DNA from: Patescibacteria group bacterium
Lineage (GTDB): Bacteria > Patescibacteriota > Minisyncoccia > Phycocordibacterales > UBA5272
NCBI GenBank assembly: GCA_030916895.1
Contig: JAUPVR010000001.1
Location: 1,887 to 65,886, forward strand
DNA: 64,000 nucleotides
Direction: 5' to 3'
Shown: positions 24,457-32,869 of the stretch, piece by piece
Position numbering within the stretch: the stretch's first letter is position 1
Layout of the letters: every line of letters begins with the position of its first letter
Program-made: the position numbers and the translations under genes
The notes under the pieces: generated by a model
The model's database searches: none
The model's input: only the letters and a program-made list of their open reading frames with translations
What the model was told of the DNA's origin: nothing

Positions 24457-24549
24457 TTCAGTATTCTACCACGGCACACGCAAAACGTGTTGATATCTAT
24501 CCCTTTTTTAGAAAAAATAAAGAACTGCCATGATACACTTGATACACGT

Positions 24550-26775
24550 ATGCGCTTGTCTCATATCACTATTTCAGGCTTTAAATCATTTGCTAAGAAG
24601 ACCACAATTGATGTTACTCACCAAGTAACGGGGGTTGTTGGTCCAAATGGTTCTGGCAAATCAAACGTTGCCGAGGCGATTCGTTTCGTGCTTGGTGAAC
24701 AATCAATGAAATCAATGCGCGGAAAGTTAGGATCTGATCTCATCTTTAAAGGCTCTGAGCACTTAAGCCCACTTTCACGCGCCTCGGTGACGATGGTTAT
24801 TGATAATCGCGATAAGGTTGATACAACACATGCAAGTCAGGAACTTGCACCATATCTTGTGTACGATCAACTTACACTTGCACGTGTTATCTACGCTGAT
24901 GGTACGAGTGACTACACGTTAAACGACGCAAAGGTACGCTTAAAAGATGTGCAAGAACTTTTGGCGTTTGCGGGTATCGGTGGAAGTAACCACACAATCA
25001 TTAATCAAGGTGAAGCGGATAAAATATTACTTGCGTCTCCACGTGAACGAAAGGAGGCAATTGAAGATGCGCTTGGTTTGCGCGTTTTTCATATTCGTCT
25101 CCATGAGAGCGAGCGAAAACTTGAAAAAGTAAAAGTACACGTGCACGAAGTTGAACTCTTGCGTAAAGAAGTTGCCCCACACTTGATTCACTTAAAGAGG
25201 CAGGTTGATAAATTGGAATCAAAAGAAAAAGAAAGACAATTATTACATAGATTGCTTACAGCGTACTTTGTTCGTGAAGAAAGAGAGCTTGCAATTTTGA
25301 ATGAAAAGATTCACGAAGCGGGTACATCGCATTCTCTTTCGCTTATTACAAACTCGATACACAAAGAACTCGAGGTTCTTAGAGAAAAGAAATCGGAAGT
25401 GCAAACAAATTCGCATCACGAAAAGCATACACTTCAAGCGGAAATTAGAACACTCCTTGAACGACGTGACCAGGTAACCAAAACACTCGGGCGTCTTGAA
25501 GCAGAAAAAAATTATCTTCAAAAAGAACTTGTCAAAGAGGAAGTTGCTACGGATGTTGTTGTGGGTTATGAGATTTTCAGAAAAACAGGAGAAGATGTAA
25601 AACACATCGCACACACAATTAAGGATGCAATTTCAGAGCAACGAGTAGACACGCTTGTTCCTCTTATGCAAACTGTCGACGGATCGGTTCATTTTTTTGA
25701 GTCACATGCAAAAAGTAGAGAAAGTGATAAAGAGTCAATTAAAAATAAATTAATTGAACTTGATGGTGAAATAAAAGCATATGAAGAAAAAGAGGTGGAT
25801 ATGGCAAAGACTGTTAAATCTCTTGAAGAGAAACTTGAATCTGTTAATACTCAAGCAGAAACCGCAATTCATTCTCGTTTTGAAGAAGAAAAAAAGAAAG
25901 TACTTCTTGAAAGCAAGCTTCGTGAACTTGAGAGTATGATTGCGCTACGCAAGCAAGAAGAAGGGGAAGTTGCTTCTCGTAAGGAACGCTTCGATGCACT
26001 GTTGGCAGAGGGTTCGGTGATCGTTGGTCGTGAGGTACTTTCGTATCGTGAGACGACCCCTGAAGAAACGTATATGACAATGGAAAAACCCGCGCTCATG
26101 AAAGCAATTGAACGCTCCAAACTTCGCATTGAAGAAGCAGGGATTCCAAATGCCTCCGAAGTTATTGCTGAGTACAAGACAACCAAAGAACGAGAAGAAT
26201 ATTTAAGTAAGGAACTTGCTGATATTCGTCAAACTGAGGCAAAACTGCTCGAACTTATCAAAGAACTCCAAACTTCTCTTGAGGAGAGATTTAATACTGG
26301 TATCAAACGAATCTCGGAGATCTTTACTGATTTTTTTGCAGAAGTATTTCCTAATGGTAAAGGTAAACTTGTACTCATTAATATGACACGTACCGACGAA
26401 GATGGTAACACCATCACTGAACAGGGGGTTGATATCGATGTCTCGCTTCCACATAAAAAAGTAAAAGAGATACAAATGTTTTCTGGTGGCGAACGTGCGC
26501 TTACCTCTATTGCACTTTTGTTTGCAATGTCGTCACTCACTCCTCCACCGTTTATGGTGCTTGATGAAACAGATGCACCGCTGGATGAATCAAATGCACG
26601 AAAGTATGGTTCGATGCTTTCTCGTCTTGCTGAGAAGAGCAAACTTTTGGTAATTACACACAACCGCGAAACGATGAATCACTGCGACATGCTCTATGGG
26701 GTGACCATTGGTGTTGATGGTTCAAGTCGTTTGCTTTCAATTAATTTTAAAGAAGCCGAAGGGTTTGCGAGGTAG
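24550..26775 (+). CDS. smc: SMC-family ATPase (short chromosome-segregation-like protein)
   Basis: Walker A GPNGSGKSN, long coiled coils, C-terminal FSGGERALTSIALLFA signature and D-loop; start taken at MRLSHITISGF. Confidence 0.75.
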   Translation: MRLSHITISGFKSFAKKTTIDVTHQVTGVVGPNGSGKSNVAEAIRFVLGEQSMKSMRGKLGSDLIFKGSEHLSPLSRASVTMVIDNRDKVDTTHASQELAPYLVYDQLTLARVIYADGTSDYTLNDAKVRLKDVQELLAFAGIGGSNHTIINQGEADKILLASPRERKEAIEDALGLRVFHIRLHESERKLEKVKVHVHEVELLRKEVAPHLIHLKRQVDKLESKEKERQLLHRLLTAYFVREERELAILNEKIHEAGTSHSLSLITNSIHKELEVLREKKSEVQTNSHHEKHTLQAEIRTLLERRDQVTKTLGRLEAEKNYLQKELVKEEVATDVVVGYEIFRKTGEDVKHIAHTIKDAISEQRVDTLVPLMQTVDGSVHFFESHAKSRESDKESIKNKLIELDGEIKAYEEKEVDMAKTVKSLEEKLESVNTQAETAIHSRFEEEKKKVLLESKLRELESMIALRKQEEGEVASRKERFDALLAEGSVIVGREVLSYRETTPEETYMTMEKPALMKAIERSKLRIEEAGIPNASEVIAEYKTTKEREEYLSKELADIRQTEAKLLELIKELQTSLEERFNTGIKRISEIFTDFFAEVFPNGKGKLVLINMTRTDEDGNTITEQGVDIDVSLPHKKVKEIQMFSGGERALTSIALLFAMSSLTPPPFMVLDETDAPLDESNARKYGSMLSRLAEKSKLLVITHNRETMNHCDMLYGVTIGVDGSSRLLSINFKEAEGFAR

Positions 26776-26837
26776 TTGATTTTTGAATACAAGAGGTATA
26801 GGATTGCAGGAAACAGTGTCCCCAAAGAGAGGTATTC

Positions 26838-27056
26838 ATGGGAAAAGAATTCTCGCTCATTTCCGAGGAATCACTCGGTAAATGCCCGCGGTGCGATTCG
26901 GGCGAAGTGGTACTGAAAACATTTGCGCGAAAAACTCTCAAGAAAAATGGCCGGCCTCACCATAAGAGAGAGTGCAAGTGTACCCTTTGTTCTTGGAACT
27001 ACGACCCCAGATACTTTGGAAAAACCAAGTTCTATACATGGGGTTCGCGCGCTTAG
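26838..27056 (+). CDS. small zinc-ribbon protein (C-x2-C ... C-x-C-x2-C)
   Basis: 72 aa, SD agagagg, own terminator; convergent with the RT gene. Confidence 0.55.
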   Translation: MGKEFSLISEESLGKCPRCDSGEVVLKTFARKTLKKNGRPHHKRECKCTLCSWNYDPRYFGKTKFYTWGSRA

Positions 27057-27066
27057 GCGCGTTTTC
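27040..27066. terminator. shared bidirectional terminator between the Zn-ribbon gene and the RT
   Basis: gcgcgc tta ggcgcg followed by T-run on the plus strand; sits about 45 nt after the RT stop on the minus strand. Confidence 0.7.
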
Positions 27067-27111
27067 TTTTTATACAAAAACGGCGCCAAGATTTTTCCAA
27101 AAAGGATAGTC

Positions 27112-28242
27112 TTAGCGCCGAAGGGGCTTGTGCCGATTTTTGTAACGCTTCCTATATTCGTGCGAGGCGTGCTTGAATTCTTTGCAGAAATTGAGCGTCC
27201 TCTTATCGGTTTCGGTTGGCGTTACGAGCCGTAGGTAGTGAAGGAACTCTGCAATCATCCCGCGTATCACTTCTGGTGAATCGTTCCACGCAGGTGTTGC
27301 AAGGTAGCTTTTCATCACACCTTCGATACGGTCCCGCTTCCACCTAGGGAAACGAAGAACAGCTTTATCACCCGTATTTTCAATTCCCACCTTGGTGACA
27401 AATACCGTACCATGCTTCACATCAAGAACTCGTGACTTCCGGTGATTAACCGAGAAACCAGCGTCATTGATGAGGCTCCGTATTTCTCGCCGAAGATCGC
27501 TCCCGATAATGATGTCGCGGGAAAAAACCAAATCATCAACATAGCGAGTGTAGGTTATTGTTCGTTCGGTGTTTTCCTTAGACCCTTTTCTTTCACACAG
27601 AGCGCGAAGTTTGCTATCAAGAAAGACTTCGCAGTAAAGGTTAAGGAGACGTGGAGACATCGGTCCACCAATGGCGAGTCCGATGTTATTTGGTCCTGAA
27701 AAAGCAATTCGTACAAACTCTCGCAAGGGTAAGTACAGCTTGTCGGTTGTCATCATTTCCTGTGCAAGAGGATTTGAGGCGAACCAGCGAAGGGAATACC
27801 CAGAATCAAGCTGATACTTTCCGTAGTGAAAGATGAGGACGAGAAGCTTTGTCAGGCGGTCAAGGTCGACACTTGGATATGCGTGCACGAAGTCGGTGAT
27901 GTAGAAAAACCGATGACCTTTGTGCTTTTCAGCATTTACGAAGTGGTTAGATGATGGAACCGACCCCGTGGAAGACGGGAGTTTGCGCAGGGTGTAGGTT
28001 TCCCCGGTCCCATACACTTCACCGATTAGGTTGATTGCTTCATGTAGGTGTCGTTCGAAAACCGCATGAACTCTACGCATCGCCTTGTTCGGGGTGCTAA
28101 TGAGTCTTCGCTTGTCACCCACTTTTTTCCACTCTGTGTGGAATAGGGGCAATGTTTGCAAGTTGCTACCCATGAGTACATGCGGGTCGAAATGAAAAAG
28201 CTCCTCTTTTTGCGAAGGAGCCTTTTTTTGCTTTTTTGCCAT
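27112..28242 (-). CDS. reverse transcriptase, retron-type (stand-alone RT domain, about 376 aa)
   Basis: RT motifs read directly: KKVGDKRRLISTPNKAMRRV (motifs 1/2), ITDFVHAYPSVD (3), LAIGGPMSPRLLNLY (4, QG-x-P-x-SP type), YTRYVDDLVFS (5, compare retron YTRYADDLTFS), VFVTKVGI (VTG-like). SD aaggag sits 6 nt before the MAKKQ start; the 61-codon upstream extension in the ORF track is GC-rich leader, not coding. Confidence 0.85.
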   Translation of the reverse strand: MAKKQKKAPSQKEELFHFDPHVLMGSNLQTLPLFHTEWKKVGDKRRLISTPNKAMRRVHAVFERHLHEAINLIGEVYGTGETYTLRKLPSSTGSVPSSNHFVNAEKHKGHRFFYITDFVHAYPSVDLDRLTKLLVLIFHYGKYQLDSGYSLRWFASNPLAQEMMTTDKLYLPLREFVRIAFSGPNNIGLAIGGPMSPRLLNLYCEVFLDSKLRALCERKGSKENTERTITYTRYVDDLVFSRDIIIGSDLRREIRSLINDAGFSVNHRKSRVLDVKHGTVFVTKVGIENTGDKAVLRFPRWKRDRIEGVMKSYLATPAWNDSPEVIRGMIAEFLHYLRLVTPTETDKRTLNFCKEFKHASHEYRKRYKNRHKPLRR

Positions 28243-28306
28243 CGGAAGCTCCTTTGGTTTATGGGGTGATATTACAAATGAACATTTAAGTATTTCCACT
28301 GCTGGC

Positions 28307-28641
28307 GCTGGGGAGCCATGTAGATGCAGGGCAACACCCGAAGGTGCGTAACCAAAGCAGTGAACCGCGGGCCTGCGGCCGATCTCTCCTCCCGACCGAC
28401 TTCCGGCTGTTCGCGTGAATCGCACATGGCATGAACTTGCGATGACGCAGTCTGCTCGGACAGTGCCGAGGCTTCGCGGGCATAGCTTGCGCTATGAGGG
28501 AGGGCAACCCTCCCTTCCTGTCGCCAGACCTTACATCAAGAGAAAATTCCTCAAGAGAAGGCTTACTACGGCAGGATTTTGCTTAGGCACAACTACTTCT
28601 GTAATGCAGGATCTTGCACCCACAAGGTTTCGCTCCCCAGC
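28307..28641 (-). ncRNA. candidate structured ncRNA upstream of the RT (msr/msd-like or DRT-template-like)
   Basis: About 58-60% GC against a ~38% background; bracketed by 10-nt inverted repeats gctggggagc (28307-28316) and gctccccagc (28632-28641); internal hairpins include gggaggg-caa-ccctccc and a UUCG tetraloop stem; ends about 65 nt upstream of the RT start on the same strand. Confidence 0.45.
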
Positions 28642-28739
28642 TTACCCTTGATCCGAGTACCATCCTAGCACGCTTGTACGCAAAGTAAATACGAAGATTT
28701 ATCGAAAACTGTGTCATGTTTATGCTATAGTAGAGCGAT

Positions 28740-30680
28740 ATGCAACGGCTTTATACGGGAACAATTAGTTTAAACTCTAAAAAAGATGGCTATGTGCGTG
28801 TGCACGACCTTGAAAAAGAAGGCTCTATTTTTGTTGACCATAGCCACTTAAACACCGCACTTCACCACGACTCAGTTGAAGTTGAATTACTCGGTAAAAA
28901 GAAAAATGTTAAAGGAGAAGATGAGCTCTACGGAAAAATTGCACGCGTGATTGAGCGAAGTAAAAAGGGATACGCTGGTATCTTGGAAGAAGATCACGGT
29001 ATGTACTTTTTGGTGCCGGATGATAGGCGGATGTATACCGATATCGTTATTGATAAGGAAAAGTTAGATGGTGGAAAAGTGGGCGACAAGATCATTGCTT
29101 CAATTGATGAATGGAACGATCACAAGAAATCACCACGTGGGGCTGTTGTTAAGGTTCTTGGTCACCCAGGAGACAATGATGCTGAAATGCTTGCGTATGC
29201 GTATGAGCGTGGTTTTAGCGATGAGCACAATGAAGCGGTCCTTGAAGAGGCACATGGAATCAAAGCGCGCGGGATACGTGAAGAAGACAAAAAAGATAGA
29301 CGCGATTTTCGTGGTGTGGGAACATTTACTATCGACCCATTTGATGCAAAAGATTTTGATGATGCTTTATCGTTTAAGAAATTAGATAACGGCCACTATG
29401 AAGTTGGTATTCATATTGCTGATGTGTCGCACTATGTTTTACCAGGAATGCATTTGGATGAGGAGGGCATCGCGCGAGAGACATCCGTGTACCTGGTGGA
29501 TAGGTGTATTCCAATGCTTCCTGAGGTGCTTTCAAATGATTTGTGTTCTTTGGTACAAGGAGAAGATCGTCTTGTTATGAGCGCAGTATTTGAATTAGAC
29601 GACGAAGGGACCATTCATGCGGAGTGGTTTGGTAAGTCTGTTATTCATTCAAACAGGCGATATACCTATGAAGATGCACAAAAGGCGATTGACACCGGAA
29701 GTGGAGATTTTGCACAAGAGCTCATTATTTTGAATAATATTGCTAAAAAGCTTACTAAAAAACGATTTGAAAATGGCGCACTTTCGCTTGAAACTGAAGA
29801 GGTTAAATTTAAATTAGATGAAAAAGGTGTTCCGGTTGATGTATATGTAAAAGAACGTATTGATACAAACAAGTTGATTGAGGAGTACATGCTCATGGCA
29901 AACAAGCAGGTGAGTAAGTTTATTACCCTCGAACAAGAAAAAGTAAAAGGCGAAGGGAAGAGTGTCTGTATTTACCGTGTACACGATAAGCCAGATACTG
30001 ATCGTATGCATGAACTCGATTTATATATTCGAGCACTTGGGTACAAGGTGCGATTTATGGACGGACTCATCCCTTCGCAAGATTTGAATGATTTGCTTAA
30101 GAAAATGGGGGATAGACCAGAGAAAGCACTTCTTCAGGTGCACATTACCCGCTCTATGGCAAAAGCAATATATAGTACAAGAAATATTGGTCACTATGGG
30201 TTGGCATTTGATTACTACTCGCACTTTACGTCGCCAATTCGCCGTTACCCAGATGTTTTAACACACCGTTTACTTGAACGAGTACTTAAAAAAGATTTTC
30301 CGAAAGATGAAGAACGAGGGTGGTATGAAAGTCTATGTGCGCAGGCGTCGCGTCGTGAGAAAGAAGCCGCGGACGCAGAACGTGGAAGTATCAAGTACAA
30401 ACAAGTTGAATACATGTCGTACCGCGTTGGACAGGAATTTGACGGTGTTGTTTCCGGTGTTTCTGAATGGGGAATCTATGTTGAAGAAAAGAAAAGTAAA
30501 TGTGAAGGCATGGTGAAGCTTCGCGATTTAGGGGAAGATTTCTTTAACTACGACCCTCGTGGTTCACGCATTATTGGTGAACGAACAGGTGTTGAATATA
30601 AAATTGGTACACCAGTAAAAATTAAGGTCAAGCAAGCTAACCTAGACCTACGAATCATCGACTATACACTCATGGCGTAG
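28740..30680 (+). CDS. rnr: ribonuclease R (RNB family)
   Basis: Cold-shock/OB N-terminal domain, RNB catalytic domain, S1 C-terminal domain. Confidence 0.85.
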   Translation: MQRLYTGTISLNSKKDGYVRVHDLEKEGSIFVDHSHLNTALHHDSVEVELLGKKKNVKGEDELYGKIARVIERSKKGYAGILEEDHGMYFLVPDDRRMYTDIVIDKEKLDGGKVGDKIIASIDEWNDHKKSPRGAVVKVLGHPGDNDAEMLAYAYERGFSDEHNEAVLEEAHGIKARGIREEDKKDRRDFRGVGTFTIDPFDAKDFDDALSFKKLDNGHYEVGIHIADVSHYVLPGMHLDEEGIARETSVYLVDRCIPMLPEVLSNDLCSLVQGEDRLVMSAVFELDDEGTIHAEWFGKSVIHSNRRYTYEDAQKAIDTGSGDFAQELIILNNIAKKLTKKRFENGALSLETEEVKFKLDEKGVPVDVYVKERIDTNKLIEEYMLMANKQVSKFITLEQEKVKGEGKSVCIYRVHDKPDTDRMHELDLYIRALGYKVRFMDGLIPSQDLNDLLKKMGDRPEKALLQVHITRSMAKAIYSTRNIGHYGLAFDYYSHFTSPIRRYPDVLTHRLLERVLKKDFPKDEERGWYESLCAQASRREKEAADAERGSIKYKQVEYMSYRVGQEFDGVVSGVSEWGIYVEEKKSKCEGMVKLRDLGEDFFNYDPRGSRIIGERTGVEYKIGTPVKIKVKQANLDLRIIDYTLMA

Positions 30681-30872
30681 CTCCTTTATTGTGTCTTTTG
30701 ATAGACATGCTACAATAACTCTCGCTTAGGTATCCGTTATATAATTCAAGTCAAGAATAGAGGGTGCCTTGGCACTGGGCCGGAGTCGCAAGACGCCGGC
30801 TCTTTTGTTTGTCTTTCCGCAAGGACGGACCCCCTTCCTTTTTTTGGAAAAGTATGTTAGAATTGGGGACAT

Positions 30873-31170
30873 GTTAAAAATCAGATTACAGCGCGTAGGA
30901 CGCAAAAATGACCCACATTTCAGACTTATTTGTACTGAAAGTACCCTTAAGCCGAAGACTTCACAATTTGCGGAGATTCTTGGTACATACAATGTGAAGG
31001 CTGGTGTTTTTAGTGCAAAAGCAGATCGTGTTAAGCACTGGATTTCTGTTGGTGCTCAAGTTACTCCAACAGTTCACAATCTCCTCGTTTCAAAAGGGGT
31101 TCTCTCTGGTAAGAAAATAAACGTTCTTCCTCGTAAGTCTCCACAGAAAAAAGTAGAAGCGAAGGCATAA
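30873..31170 (+). CDS. rpsP: 30S ribosomal protein S16
   Basis: MLKIRLQRVGRKNDPHFRLI; the ORF-track start at 30769 is a GC-rich leader extension. Confidence 0.85.
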
Positions 31171-31258
31171 TTTTTTACAAAAAGTCTGTTCCTGTGCATA
31201 AGTAGTAGGGTGCTATTCTTGATTTGCTGTTACGATAGAGTTATACAAAAATAAATAT

Positions 31259-31579
31259 ATGAAAGACCAAGAATTTGTTGAGTATGTTGTTAAGGCATTA
31301 GTAGACAATCCGGAACAGGTGAAAGTCGATCGAAGGGTAGATGAGATGGGGGTACTTATTACGCTTGACGTTGCGGGTGAAGACATGGGTAAAATTATTG
31401 GTCGCGATGGCGCAACCGCAAAAGCGCTACGCACACTTCTTCGTGTTGTTGGTATGAAAAACAATGCACGTGTTAATTTGAAAATCAATGAACCAGCAGG
31501 ACGAGAATTTCGTCCAAATCATCAAACGTATGATATGACTGACGTTGATGCGGTGATGAACGATTTGAAAGGGATTTAA
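31259..31579 (+). CDS. KH-domain RNA-binding protein (YlqC/UPF0109-like)
   Basis: GKIIGRDG KH motif; conserved position between rpsP and trmD. Confidence 0.75.
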   Translation: MKDQEFVEYVVKALVDNPEQVKVDRRVDEMGVLITLDVAGEDMGKIIGRDGATAKALRTLLRVVGMKNNARVNLKINEPAGREFRPNHQTYDMTDVDAVMNDLKGI

Positions 31580-31595
31580 ATAATTTTAGACAACA

Positions 31596-31628
31596 GAAAA
31601 GCGCGACCGCTATTACTACGGCCGCGCT
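31596..31628. terminator. bidirectional terminator
   Basis: agcgcgaccg ctattacta cggccgcgct followed by T-run. Confidence 0.6.
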
Positions 31629-31641
31629 TTTTCTTGCACGG

Positions 31642-32130
31642 CTATTTTTTCTTTTCTTCTTCTTTGGTACGTTCGTACATTTCTTTAAGTGTTTCGTGCT
31701 CGAACTCAAGCGTGTGTATTTCTAGGAATGGTCTAGCGGTGTAATAGAACCGCAATCCTTCCTTGAATAGAAATATGCAGACAAGGAGGGTTATAAATGA
31801 CGCAATCCTGAAGTCTTCCCAGAGTGCCCCCACAGCTACAAGGCCTACTACCGGGGAGGAGAGGCAAAACACTCCACCCTCTGCGATTTTTTCAGGAGCA
31901 AGAAGAAGTTGTTCAATAGTTCCCATCCTTCGTGTCAGCATTACCCAGACACGAAGTGTTGCGATGAGAATGATAATTGGTCCTGCGATGAAAACAATCG
32001 CGTATTGGAGTTCGAGCTCTTGTTTTGTTTCGGGGAAAAACGCCATGAACAAGAACAAGGGAAGAAAGACATACACCATGAGCCAAACTACAGCATCTAG
32101 GTTTGTAAGTCGAATCTGCATTTTTTTCAC
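31642..32130 (-). CDS. ICMT/PEMT-like membrane methyltransferase family protein
   Basis: 162 aa, 4 TM; C-terminal E..LE..F..E..Y..R pattern resembles the isoprenylcysteine carboxyl methyltransferase family. Confidence 0.4.
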   Translation of the reverse strand: MKKMQIRLTNLDAVVWLMVYVFLPLFLFMAFFPETKQELELQYAIVFIAGPIIILIATLRVWVMLTRRMGTIEQLLLAPEKIAEGGVFCLSSPVVGLVAVGALWEDFRIASFITLLVCIFLFKEGLRFYYTARPFLEIHTLEFEHETLKEMYERTKEEEKKK

Positions 32131-32197
32131 AAAAATTCTCCATGTCTTTTGGGAGTCCGTTTTACACTCTACGTTTCATTTGCTAGTATGTCAAATA

Positions 32198-32869
32198 ATG
32201 CGCTTTCATGTGGTAACCATCTTTCCAAATATGTTCGATTCGTATTTTGCCGAGTCGATTATTTCGCGCGCCATCAAGAATAAGTTGATTGAAATCAAAA
32301 CATACTCACTCCGCGAGTATACGAAAGACAAACACCGACGCGTTGATGGTAAGCCCTACGGTGGAGGACCAGGGATGGTGATGTGGGTAGAACCGCTTAT
32401 CAGCGTCGTTGATTCAATTGAAAAAAAACTTGCCCGTAAAAAAGGGTCAAAACCAAAAGTAGTTATTTTTTCTCCAGGAGGAAAACAATTTACGAATACA
32501 ATTGCAGAACAAACAGAAGAAAAATATACGGACATTGTTTTCATATGCGGTCGCTATGAAGGAATTGATGCACGCGTGAAAAAAATTTTGAAAGCCGAAG
32601 AGTGGAGCATTGGTCCATATGTATTAACGGGAGGGGAGTTGCCTGCGATGATTGCAATTGATGCGATTGCGCGTCGTGTGAAGGGCGTACTTCACGATGA
32701 AGATTCGCTTGAGGAAAAGCGTGTAGCAAGTCACGAAATGTATGCGCGTCCAGAGGTGTATGAATACAAAGGGAAAAAGTATCGCGTACCGAAAGTGCTA
32801 CTGTCTGGCAATCACAAACTCATTGAAGAATATCGAAAGAAAAAAGAAAATATTGTCGGTAAGAAGTAG
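32198..32869 (+). CDS. trmD: tRNA (guanine37-N1)-methyltransferase
   Basis: MRFHVVTIFPNMF... SPOUT family; the ORF-track start at 31763 is spurious. Confidence 0.9.
   Translation: MRFHVVTIFPNMFDSYFAESIISRAIKNKLIEIKTYSLREYTKDKHRRVDGKPYGGGPGMVMWVEPLISVVDSIEKKLARKKGSKPKVVIFSPGGKQFTNTIAEQTEEKYTDIVFICGRYEGIDARVKKILKAEEWSIGPYVLTGGELPAMIAIDAIARRVKGVLHDEDSLEEKRVASHEMYARPEVYEYKGKKYRVPKVLLSGNHKLIEEYRKKKENIVGKK

Follow-up and report, generated by a model that had tools for sequence, protein, structure and literature searches.

Genes and transcript at the locus

The locus comprises a reverse transcriptase (RT) gene on the minus strand and, directly upstream of it, a GC-rich region bracketed by inverted repeats, both lying between the plus-strand genes for SMC and RNase R. 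It is part of a 64,000-nt stretch of DNA that was analysed as a whole (hereafter, the window). The genes, the repeats located by a repeat search, and the elements adjoining the upstream region are as follows:

24487-26775, plus strand: SMC, a neighbour of the RT gene
27112-28242, minus strand: retron-type reverse transcriptase of 376 aa, with the ATG at 28242 after AAAGGAG and the stop at 27112
28243-28306, minus strand: spacer between the RNA and the RT gene, with the RBS AAAGGAGC at 28248-28255 and the sequence GUUCnUUUUCA, which is conserved across loci
28307-28316: inverted-repeat arm GCTGGGGAGC, 100% complementary to GCTCCCCAGC, with 315 nt between the arms
28497-28515: hairpin AGGGAGGG/CCCTCCCT
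28536-44 and 28551-59: direct repeat TCAAGAGAA
28632-28641: inverted-repeat arm GCTCCCCAGC
28662-28689, minus strand: promoter-like element, with a -35 box TTTACT at 28684-28689 and an extended -10 box TGCTAGGAT at 28662-28670
28740-30680, plus strand: RNase R, a neighbour of the RT gene

An initial annotation had proposed an RNA candidate from the 10-nt inverted repeats at 28307-28316 and 28632-28641, and its description of the region holds in most details. The arms are fully complementary, and the nearer one, placed about 65 nt before the RT start, was measured at 65 nt upstream of the ATG. The strong hairpin reported there (28497-28515) corresponds to helix P3 described below, the UUCG-tetraloop stem (CACC-UUCG-GGUG, 28334-28347) is present on the minus strand only, and the short direct repeat occurs in two copies. 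The reported GC enrichment amounts to 0.55-0.63 inside the RNA region versus ~0.42 in the flanks. A 10-nt inverted repeat is by itself not significant, as ~24 exact repeats of this kind are expected by chance per window (64,000 positions x ~400 spacings x 4^-10); its significance derives from covariation in homologous loci and from folding.

The promoter-like element is situated 6-8 nt upstream of the conserved 5' leader of the RNA. In an alignment of 16 upstream regions, its TT..C and TGnTAnnnT columns are conserved; a generic promoter scan gave 8 of 12 matches at the element, below the reporting threshold, and it is conservation that marks it as promoter-like. No terminator-like site was detected between the RNA and the RT gene in the window, and the two are therefore probably carried by one transcript. 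The distance between the 3' arm and the ATG is ~43-64 nt in most loci. An 8-nt complement connects bases just upstream of the RBS (28252-28259) with the variable domain of the RNA (28350-28357). Sequestration of the RBS by this domain was discarded, and the complement is probably due to chance, since no equivalent covariation is observed in the other loci.

The ORF track contains a 437-aa ORF (27112-28425) with a GTG start inside the RNA, which adds 61 codons to the 376-aa RT and is bounded by the stop codon UAG in hairpin P4. The depletion of stops in the RT frame vanishes when the RNA body alone is counted, where the RT frame is as open as the other frames; the initial annotation was correct in treating the extension as spurious. 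An N-terminally extended RT and a decayed gene, the latter named in that annotation as the finding that would overturn the RNA, were both rejected: translations of the upstream regions are unrelated between loci, while the helices covary.

Between the stop codons of SMC and the RT gene lies a small plus-strand ORF (26838-27070, 72 aa, ATG start) with the pattern CxxC...CxC...C and a weak match to Rubredoxin (E 0.024). The ORF is followed by a GC hairpin with a T-run (GCGCGCTTAGGCGCG-TTTTCTTTTT), which could terminate both convergent transcripts. The gap between SMC and the RT gene is only ~36 nt in the syntenic contigs L161, L165, and L168.

Structure of the RNA

The upstream region was compared with 15 further distinct loci that retain upstream sequence and encode RTs 40-51% identical to that of the window. 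An RT-profile scan of genome and metagenome contigs returned mostly ordinary retron RTs and contributed six useful loci, the remainder being taken from contigs that encode homologues. Permutation and shuffle controls ignore phylogeny, and several of the 15 independent loci are closely related. The elements of the RNA, listed from 5' to 3' (all on the minus strand), are:

28642-28656: conserved 5' leader ucGGAUCAAGGGUAA, including GGAUC (28650-28654) and AGGGUAA (28642-28648), the latter being the 5' strand of a candidate pseudoknot
28632-28641: P1a 5' strand (a1-like repeat) GCUGGGGAGC, assigned by covariation
28625-28631: 5'-strand bulge GAAACCU, preceding the P1b 5' strand
28615-28624: P1b 5' strand UGUGGGUGCA, assigned by RNAduplex
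28609-28613: GAUCC, 1-5 nt after P1b across loci, conserved in 13 of 15 loci and a possible partner of the leader GGAUC
28577-28608: GUAG-rich, C-poor single-stranded linker, 16-72 nt long across loci
28516-28576: P2 domain, with the stem UCCUGCCG / UGGCGACAGGA and the conserved internal loops (C)GUAGUAAGCC and GGUCUGG
28529-28561: P2b, a variable apical hairpin that holds the window-specific UUCUCUUGA x2 repeat
28498-28514: P3 hairpin GGGAGGG-UUG-CCCUCCC, with five pairs predicted on alignment A3, three of them compensatory (GC/AU/UA)
28481-28496: P4 hairpin CAUAGC-GCAA-GCUAUG, with a strongly conserved 5' strand AUAGCGC
28335-28480: variable GC-rich domain, the candidate template, 88-184 nt long across loci; the UUCG hairpin at 28334-28347 is assigned to it
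28328-28334: UUGCCCU, 3' strand of the candidate pseudoknot, located before the P1b 3' strand
28319-28328: P1b 3' strand UGCAUCUACA, which shares U28328 with UUGCCCU
28307-28316: P1a 3' strand (a2-like repeat) GCUCCCCAGC, assigned by covariation

Folding, which the initial annotation had suggested as a check, yields an MFE of -147.6 kcal/mol for the minus strand (z -3.86), and none of 100 shuffled sequences is as stable; the plus strand folds less strongly (z -2.2). G-U pairs in the helices would read as C-A mismatches on the opposite strand. A U-G pair in P2 is found in 15/15 loci, and P1b of the window contains two G-U pairs. As such pairs fix the strand, the RNA has the same sense as the RT and lies upstream of it. 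The window positions 28300-28656 (minus strand) encode a structured non-coding RNA of ~350 nt. The conserved element is somewhat larger than the stretch flagged initially: it extends to ~28656 with the 5' leader and is joined by the promoter-like element at 28662-28689.

Two covarying segments, P1a and P1b, make up the bipartite helix of ~20 bp that closes the RNA. In an ungapped alignment of 14 loci (A2), 97.9% of P1a cells are paired and eight of the ten pairs are changed on both sides; 0/500 shuffles score as high, and pairing drops to 35-59% in slid registers. The 5' strand varies widely, each variant having a matching partner (e.g., GCUGGGGAGC, GCCGGGAAGC, GCCAAGGGGG, and GCCAGGAAGA). P1b, a helix of 9-12 bp, lies just inside P1a, beyond a bulge of 5-7 nt on the 5' strand. 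It was found by RNAduplex in 15/15 loci, with sequences unrelated among loci. The cognate duplex energies sum to -188.3, compared to -98.9 +/- 12.3 for permuted strands (0/20000 permutations), the registers of P1b and the pseudoknot being set by energy minimisation rather than by a fixed alignment. The repeats thus close the RNA, covary, and lie just upstream of the RT on its strand, in the position of the retron a1/a2 repeats, as the initial annotation had pointed out. It had also proposed to check for a conserved branching G after the 5' repeat. The base that follows P1a unpaired is G in 12/15 loci, C in L161, U in L164, and A in L163, which does not establish conservation of such a G. A near-invariant G, within GAUCC, also follows P1b.

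The leader GGAUCAAGG is kept in 12/15 loci and can pair with the bases directly 5' of the P1b 3' strand. The pairing covaries (AGGCA/UGCCU in L162, GGGUAUU/AAUACCC in L003, and AGGGUAA/UUGCCCU in the window), and the match between AGGUA-type leaders and UACCU-type partners is equalled in 19/20000 permutations. A straight 20-bp P1 is incompatible with this pairing, which would therefore represent an alternative conformation, an intermolecular contact, or P1 folding back at the bulge. UUGCCCU occurs twice on the minus strand of the window RNA, at 28328-28334 (before the P1b 3' strand) and at 28501-28507 (P3 loop and 3' strand), so that the leader AGGGUAA has two possible partners there; the second copy, in P3, is absent from the other loci. 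Another possible but weakly supported pairing is GGAUC/GAUCC, which the variation barely tests; the two loci with a variant GAUCC retain a possible 4-bp pairing as assessed by eye (GGGU/ACCU in L168 and GGGA/UCCC in L161).

These pairings bear on the possibility that the RNA acts as a cis-regulatory 5' leader only (riboswitch- or thermosensor-like), controlling RT expression and serving neither as a template nor as a subunit. The probable common transcript of RNA and RT would be in line with such a role; the mutually exclusive pairings (leader/UACCU versus straight P1) could constitute a switch, and a1 is purine-rich and SD-like, with a2 pyrimidine-rich. However, the 350-nt fold contains multiple helices, and its 20-bp closing helix ends 43-64 nt before the ATG, clear of the RBS. 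No covariation was found between the RBS region and the RNA body, and the characterised relatives of the RT all use an adjacent ncRNA as a template. A purely regulatory leader is considered unlikely.

Within the closing helix, the RNA has a conserved covarying core (P2, P3, and P4), a GUAG-rich linker, and a GC-rich domain of variable sequence. RNAalifold predicts eight pairs in P2 on alignment A3, seven of them compensatory; for P2 and P3 together, the figures are 13 and 10, respectively. P4 is represented in other loci by a local hairpin that differs in length and sequence (e.g., CAUAGUGCAA-UCUU-UUGCGCUAUG in L002, identified by eye). The pooled linkers contain GUAG 25 times in 636 nt, whereas ~4 occurrences are expected from their composition. 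In the window RNA, GUAG or GUAGUA is present in three single-stranded sites of the minus strand, namely the linker (28577-28608), the end of the P1 bulge (28625-28631), and the P2 internal loop (28560-28568), and it recurs in the same elements of L002-L170. The motifs form near-hexameric runs in L162 and L003 (CGUAGUCGUAGUCGCAGU...).

The variable domain shows no sequence conservation in the alignment of homologous loci. Its GC content is 0.60-0.73 in loci with an overall GC content of 0.39-0.56, while its MFE is close to that of shuffled sequences (z ~0) in 13/15 loci and the predicted folds are multi-branched. Among the features on which the initial annotation was built, the inverted-repeat arms and the strong hairpin (P3) covary across loci, whereas the UUCG stem and the TCAAGAGAA repeat fall where the RNA is variable and are not conserved.

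Association of the RNA with a retron-type reverse transcriptase

A gene-free stretch of 400-540 nt with a GC bump precedes the RT gene in 15/15 homologous loci retaining upstream sequence. The conserved blocks occur in a fixed order. The promoter-like TTtaC...TGnTAnnnT is followed by GGAUCAAGG, a1, a variable strand, GAUCC, and the C-poor, GUAG-rich linker. The order continues with cUGUCAUAGUAAGCC...GGUAUGGUGgCAG, a GGGnn/nnCCC hairpin, AUAGCGC, and the GC-rich domain of 88-184 nt without sequence conservation, and ends with uACCUa, a variable strand, a2, GUUCnUUUUCA, GGAG, and the ATG. A covariance model built on the P2-P4 core (R1) matches 14/15 homologous loci at 32-88 bits, as well as L001, a near-identical copy of L164. 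It has a single match in the window (28466-28579, minus strand, 74.5 bits) and none in 25 ordinary retron loci. The structure, with the same covarying helix at 15 loci (RT 40-70% identical), is thus conserved beside related RTs, a comparison that the initial annotation had proposed. Flanking genes vary among the loci, and the RT alone is shared. Together, RNA and RT make up a module of two parts that has its own promoter-like element and moves whole between genomic contexts that are unrelated.

The locus without a match to the model is L171:2550-3000, from a Moranbacteria MAG, in which the RT is preceded by just the 3' half of the RNA (a2 GGCCCCCTTGGCC). Neither a1 (within 900 nt) nor the core (no match to the model) was found there; either the module has degenerated or the assembly is at fault.

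An all-against-all comparison of the flanking ORFs (+/-3 kb, 16 loci) revealed no conserved effector, the RT being the only shared protein, and there is no conserved small ORF downstream of the RT across loci. The flanks consist of ordinary housekeeping genes, including those for ribosomal proteins, Mur ligase, CTP synthase, and BipA. The gene order SMC-RT-RNase R-S16-KH-TrmD is kept in the window (24487-32869) and in four other contigs. In the syntenic contigs L161, L165, and L168, identity to the window proteins is 47-68% for SMC, 75-78% for RNase R, and 42-51% for the RT, which evolves faster than these neighbours. As synteny persists although all three proteins are deeply diverged, the module has long been kept at this site. 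The persistent gene order and the housekeeping surroundings suggest a cell-intrinsic or self-contained function and not a classic toxin-based defence cassette. A viral origin was rejected: IMG/VR contains no close relative of the RT, and its one match to the RNA pattern (11.8 bits) lies inside a coding region and is due to chance.

The context also raises the question of whether the RNA is a partner of the RT at all, or instead a decayed coding gene, a template repeat of a diversity-generating element (DGR), or a housekeeping RNA (tmRNA, RNase P, or 6S) that is unrelated and adjacent by coincidence. RNase R is its neighbour, and tmRNA-related genes often adjoin RNase R; in addition, the region is traversed by a long ORF. 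DGRs are abundant in CPR genomes (PMC8632793). Against this, ARAGORN and Rfam gave no hit to tmRNA, RNase P, or any other known housekeeping RNA, even at E<=10, and the RNA accompanies the RT into loci without RNase R. A search of the 64-kb window with blastn retrieved no second copy of the region (best match 19 nt) and no variable repeat, which excludes a DGR template repeat; a coding origin is contradicted by the unrelated upstream translations and the covarying helices noted above. These explanations are effectively refuted. Comparison with known ncRNA models, proposed in the initial annotation, was likewise unproductive: in the window, neither the gathering score nor E<=10 brings a match in Rfam 15, and in 14 homologous loci tRNAs alone reach the gathering score.

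The RT itself retains intact motifs, including the catalytic YVDD and NAEKH (= NAXXH, residues 103-107); N103/H107 and D236/D237 are invariant in 31 homologues. The counterpart of the VTG motif reads F-V-T-K-V-G, with K-V inserted, where T283 is invariant and G286 is present in at least 90% of the 31 homologues; NAXXH and VTG are retron RT motif definitions (PMC7736814). RVT_1 is the sole Pfam match. The best 25 PADLOC matches are all retron RT models, albeit weak (E ~1e-16), and the best NCBIfam models remain far below their cut-offs (retron_St85_RT, 67.8 versus 235 bits; Ec67, 49 versus 450). With a profile of the 31 homologues, a PDB search retrieved the RTs of retrons Ec78, Eco7, Ec86, Ec67, and Ec83 at E 1e-13 to 1e-10. 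The AF2 model (pLDDT 85) leads to a similar assignment: its 15 best Foldseek matches in the PDB are retron RTs (TM 0.5-0.66, ~18% identity), and beyond RT7 it comprises a helical thumb only, with no fused effector domain. About 34 proteins score 236-554 bits among 1.84 billion representatives; the next ones score at most 196 bits, with split matches typical of ordinary retron RTs. The RT belongs to a retron-type clade that is small and distinct, and it scores below the cut-offs of all named families.

A 100%-identical protein is annotated from Patescibacteria group bacterium, and the source names of the clade (Patescibacteria, Saccharibacteria, Parcubacteria, Kaiserbacteria, Moranbacteria, and Minisyncoccota) belong to the CPR in all but one locus. 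The sole label from outside the CPR, an uncultured Bdellovibrionales MAG (L004, CAYNMD010000003.1), may stem from erroneous binning or from a transfer. The small group UG38 of class 2 UG/Abi RTs, restricted to the CPR, occurs in Parcubacteria and other CPR and is likewise uncharacterised and without associated domains (PMC9226505). As the nearest relatives of the present RT are retron RTs and not UG/Abi RTs, it probably belongs to a different group, UG38 having been compared by description only.

The other model raised by the initial annotation was DRT2 (UG2), in which rolling-circle reverse transcription of a template loop produces a concatemeric cDNA encoding a stop-free 'Neo' gene. The resemblance lies in a stand-alone RT, a structured upstream ncRNA of ~300 nt whose ends are paired together, and the lack of a separate effector gene. 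Nevertheless, the RT is only remotely similar to Drt2, scoring 19.8 bits against an NCBIfam cut-off of 390, with E 7e-4 in the PDB search (compared to 1e-13 for retron RTs) and the 25th rank by fold. No direct-repeat 'jump' sites were identified, and nothing in Rfam is related to the closing helix or the core. The stop-free frame that the annotation proposed to look for did not appear either: taken as a whole, the interior of the RNA has stops in every sense frame in 14/15 loci, and the variable domain has neither a conserved sequence nor a conserved frame. A mechanism of the DRT2 kind is very unlikely for this module.

Relation to retrons and possible function

Retrons consist of an RT, an msr-msd ncRNA, and an effector, and have been classified into types I-XIII (Mestre et al. 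2020, PMC7736814). Like them, the present module has an RT that sequence, fold, and the NAXXH motif place in the retron lineage. Its ncRNA lies directly upstream on the same strand, is probably co-transcribed, and has its ends closed by covarying a1/a2-like inverted repeats; a conserved 5' part is followed by a variable 3' part, as msr is by msd. Several features set it apart. The RT scores lower than the cut-off of any curated retron family and stands as a small clade of its own, and its VTG motif reads VTKVG. At ~350 nt, the RNA is about twice the typical size of a retron ncRNA. Its ~20-bp closing helix is bipartite, interrupted by a bulge of 5-7 nt, and the RNA further contains a leader that is conserved, a linker rich in GUAG, and candidate pseudoknots. 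The G after a1 is not invariant. Typical msd regions are long, stable hairpins, which the variable domain is not. To our knowledge, every classified retron type has an effector, and retrons are defined as three-part defence systems; here, neither an effector gene nor a fused effector domain is present, and the context is housekeeping and syntenic rather than a defence island, in CPR/Patescibacteria hosts. The module is a variant of the retron kind that departs from it in family score, stable msd hairpin, effector, and known ncRNA model.

On the basis of this analogy, the RNA probably serves as a retron-like template, or as a scaffold or partner ncRNA, for a retron-type RT that has no effector. 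Binding of this RT to the conserved core would be msr-like, as in retrons. The closing helix P1 would set the priming nucleotide beside the 3' end of the variable domain, part of which would be copied (msd-like) into a small DNA retained in the RNA-protein complex. That DNA is made, where its synthesis is primed, and what the complex does are all inferred from the comparison with retrons. Three points weaken the analogy, namely a G after a1 in only 12/15 loci, a variable domain that is GC-rich yet folds like shuffled sequences, and the lack of an effector. The RT in L171 without the 5' half of the RNA also speaks against the retron-like reading.

Alternatively, the RNA would act as a scaffold or guide subunit and not as a retron-style template, the RT copying either a very short internal template (e.g., the GUAG(U/C)A repeats, in a telomerase-like fashion) or other RNAs, for which the large conserved fold would provide assembly and specificity. 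A retron msr is much simpler than this conserved core with its candidate pseudoknots, GUAG is enriched ~6-fold where the RNA is single-stranded, no selected hairpin is seen in the variable domain, and the locus lacks an effector and is inherited vertically. However, the RT is of the retron type by sequence and fold, the number and spacing of GUAG units differ between loci, and nothing positive was found for a repeat DNA product. Such a subunit is regarded as rather unlikely.

A more specific version of the retron-like reading can be put forward tentatively, as a possibility less likely than not. The module may represent a domesticated, effector-less retron lineage that is inherited vertically in CPR/Patescibacteria, with one clade fixed between SMC and RNase R, and in which the RT and its large, pseudoknotted RNA form a self-contained RNP with a cellular, non-toxin role. 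If so, it might provide a DNA or RNA-DNA product for genome maintenance or regulation, or act in defence with the cDNA itself as the output.

The RNA constitutes an undescribed structured RNA family, without a match in Rfam 15 and with no paper found in the literature searched; searches for retrons or RT ncRNAs in CPR, Patescibacteria, and Saccharibacteria returned no description of this RNA-RT family. Its structure is as elaborate as that of a large riboswitch or a small ribozyme. Compact RT-ncRNA pairs that make defined DNA are of practical interest for genome-editing tools. If the retron-like reading is true, the module departs from the three-part retrons in having two parts and in being vertically inherited in genome-reduced, host-dependent bacteria. 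It would then widen the known roles of retron-type RTs and offer a tractable case for housekeeping roles of bacterial reverse transcriptases.
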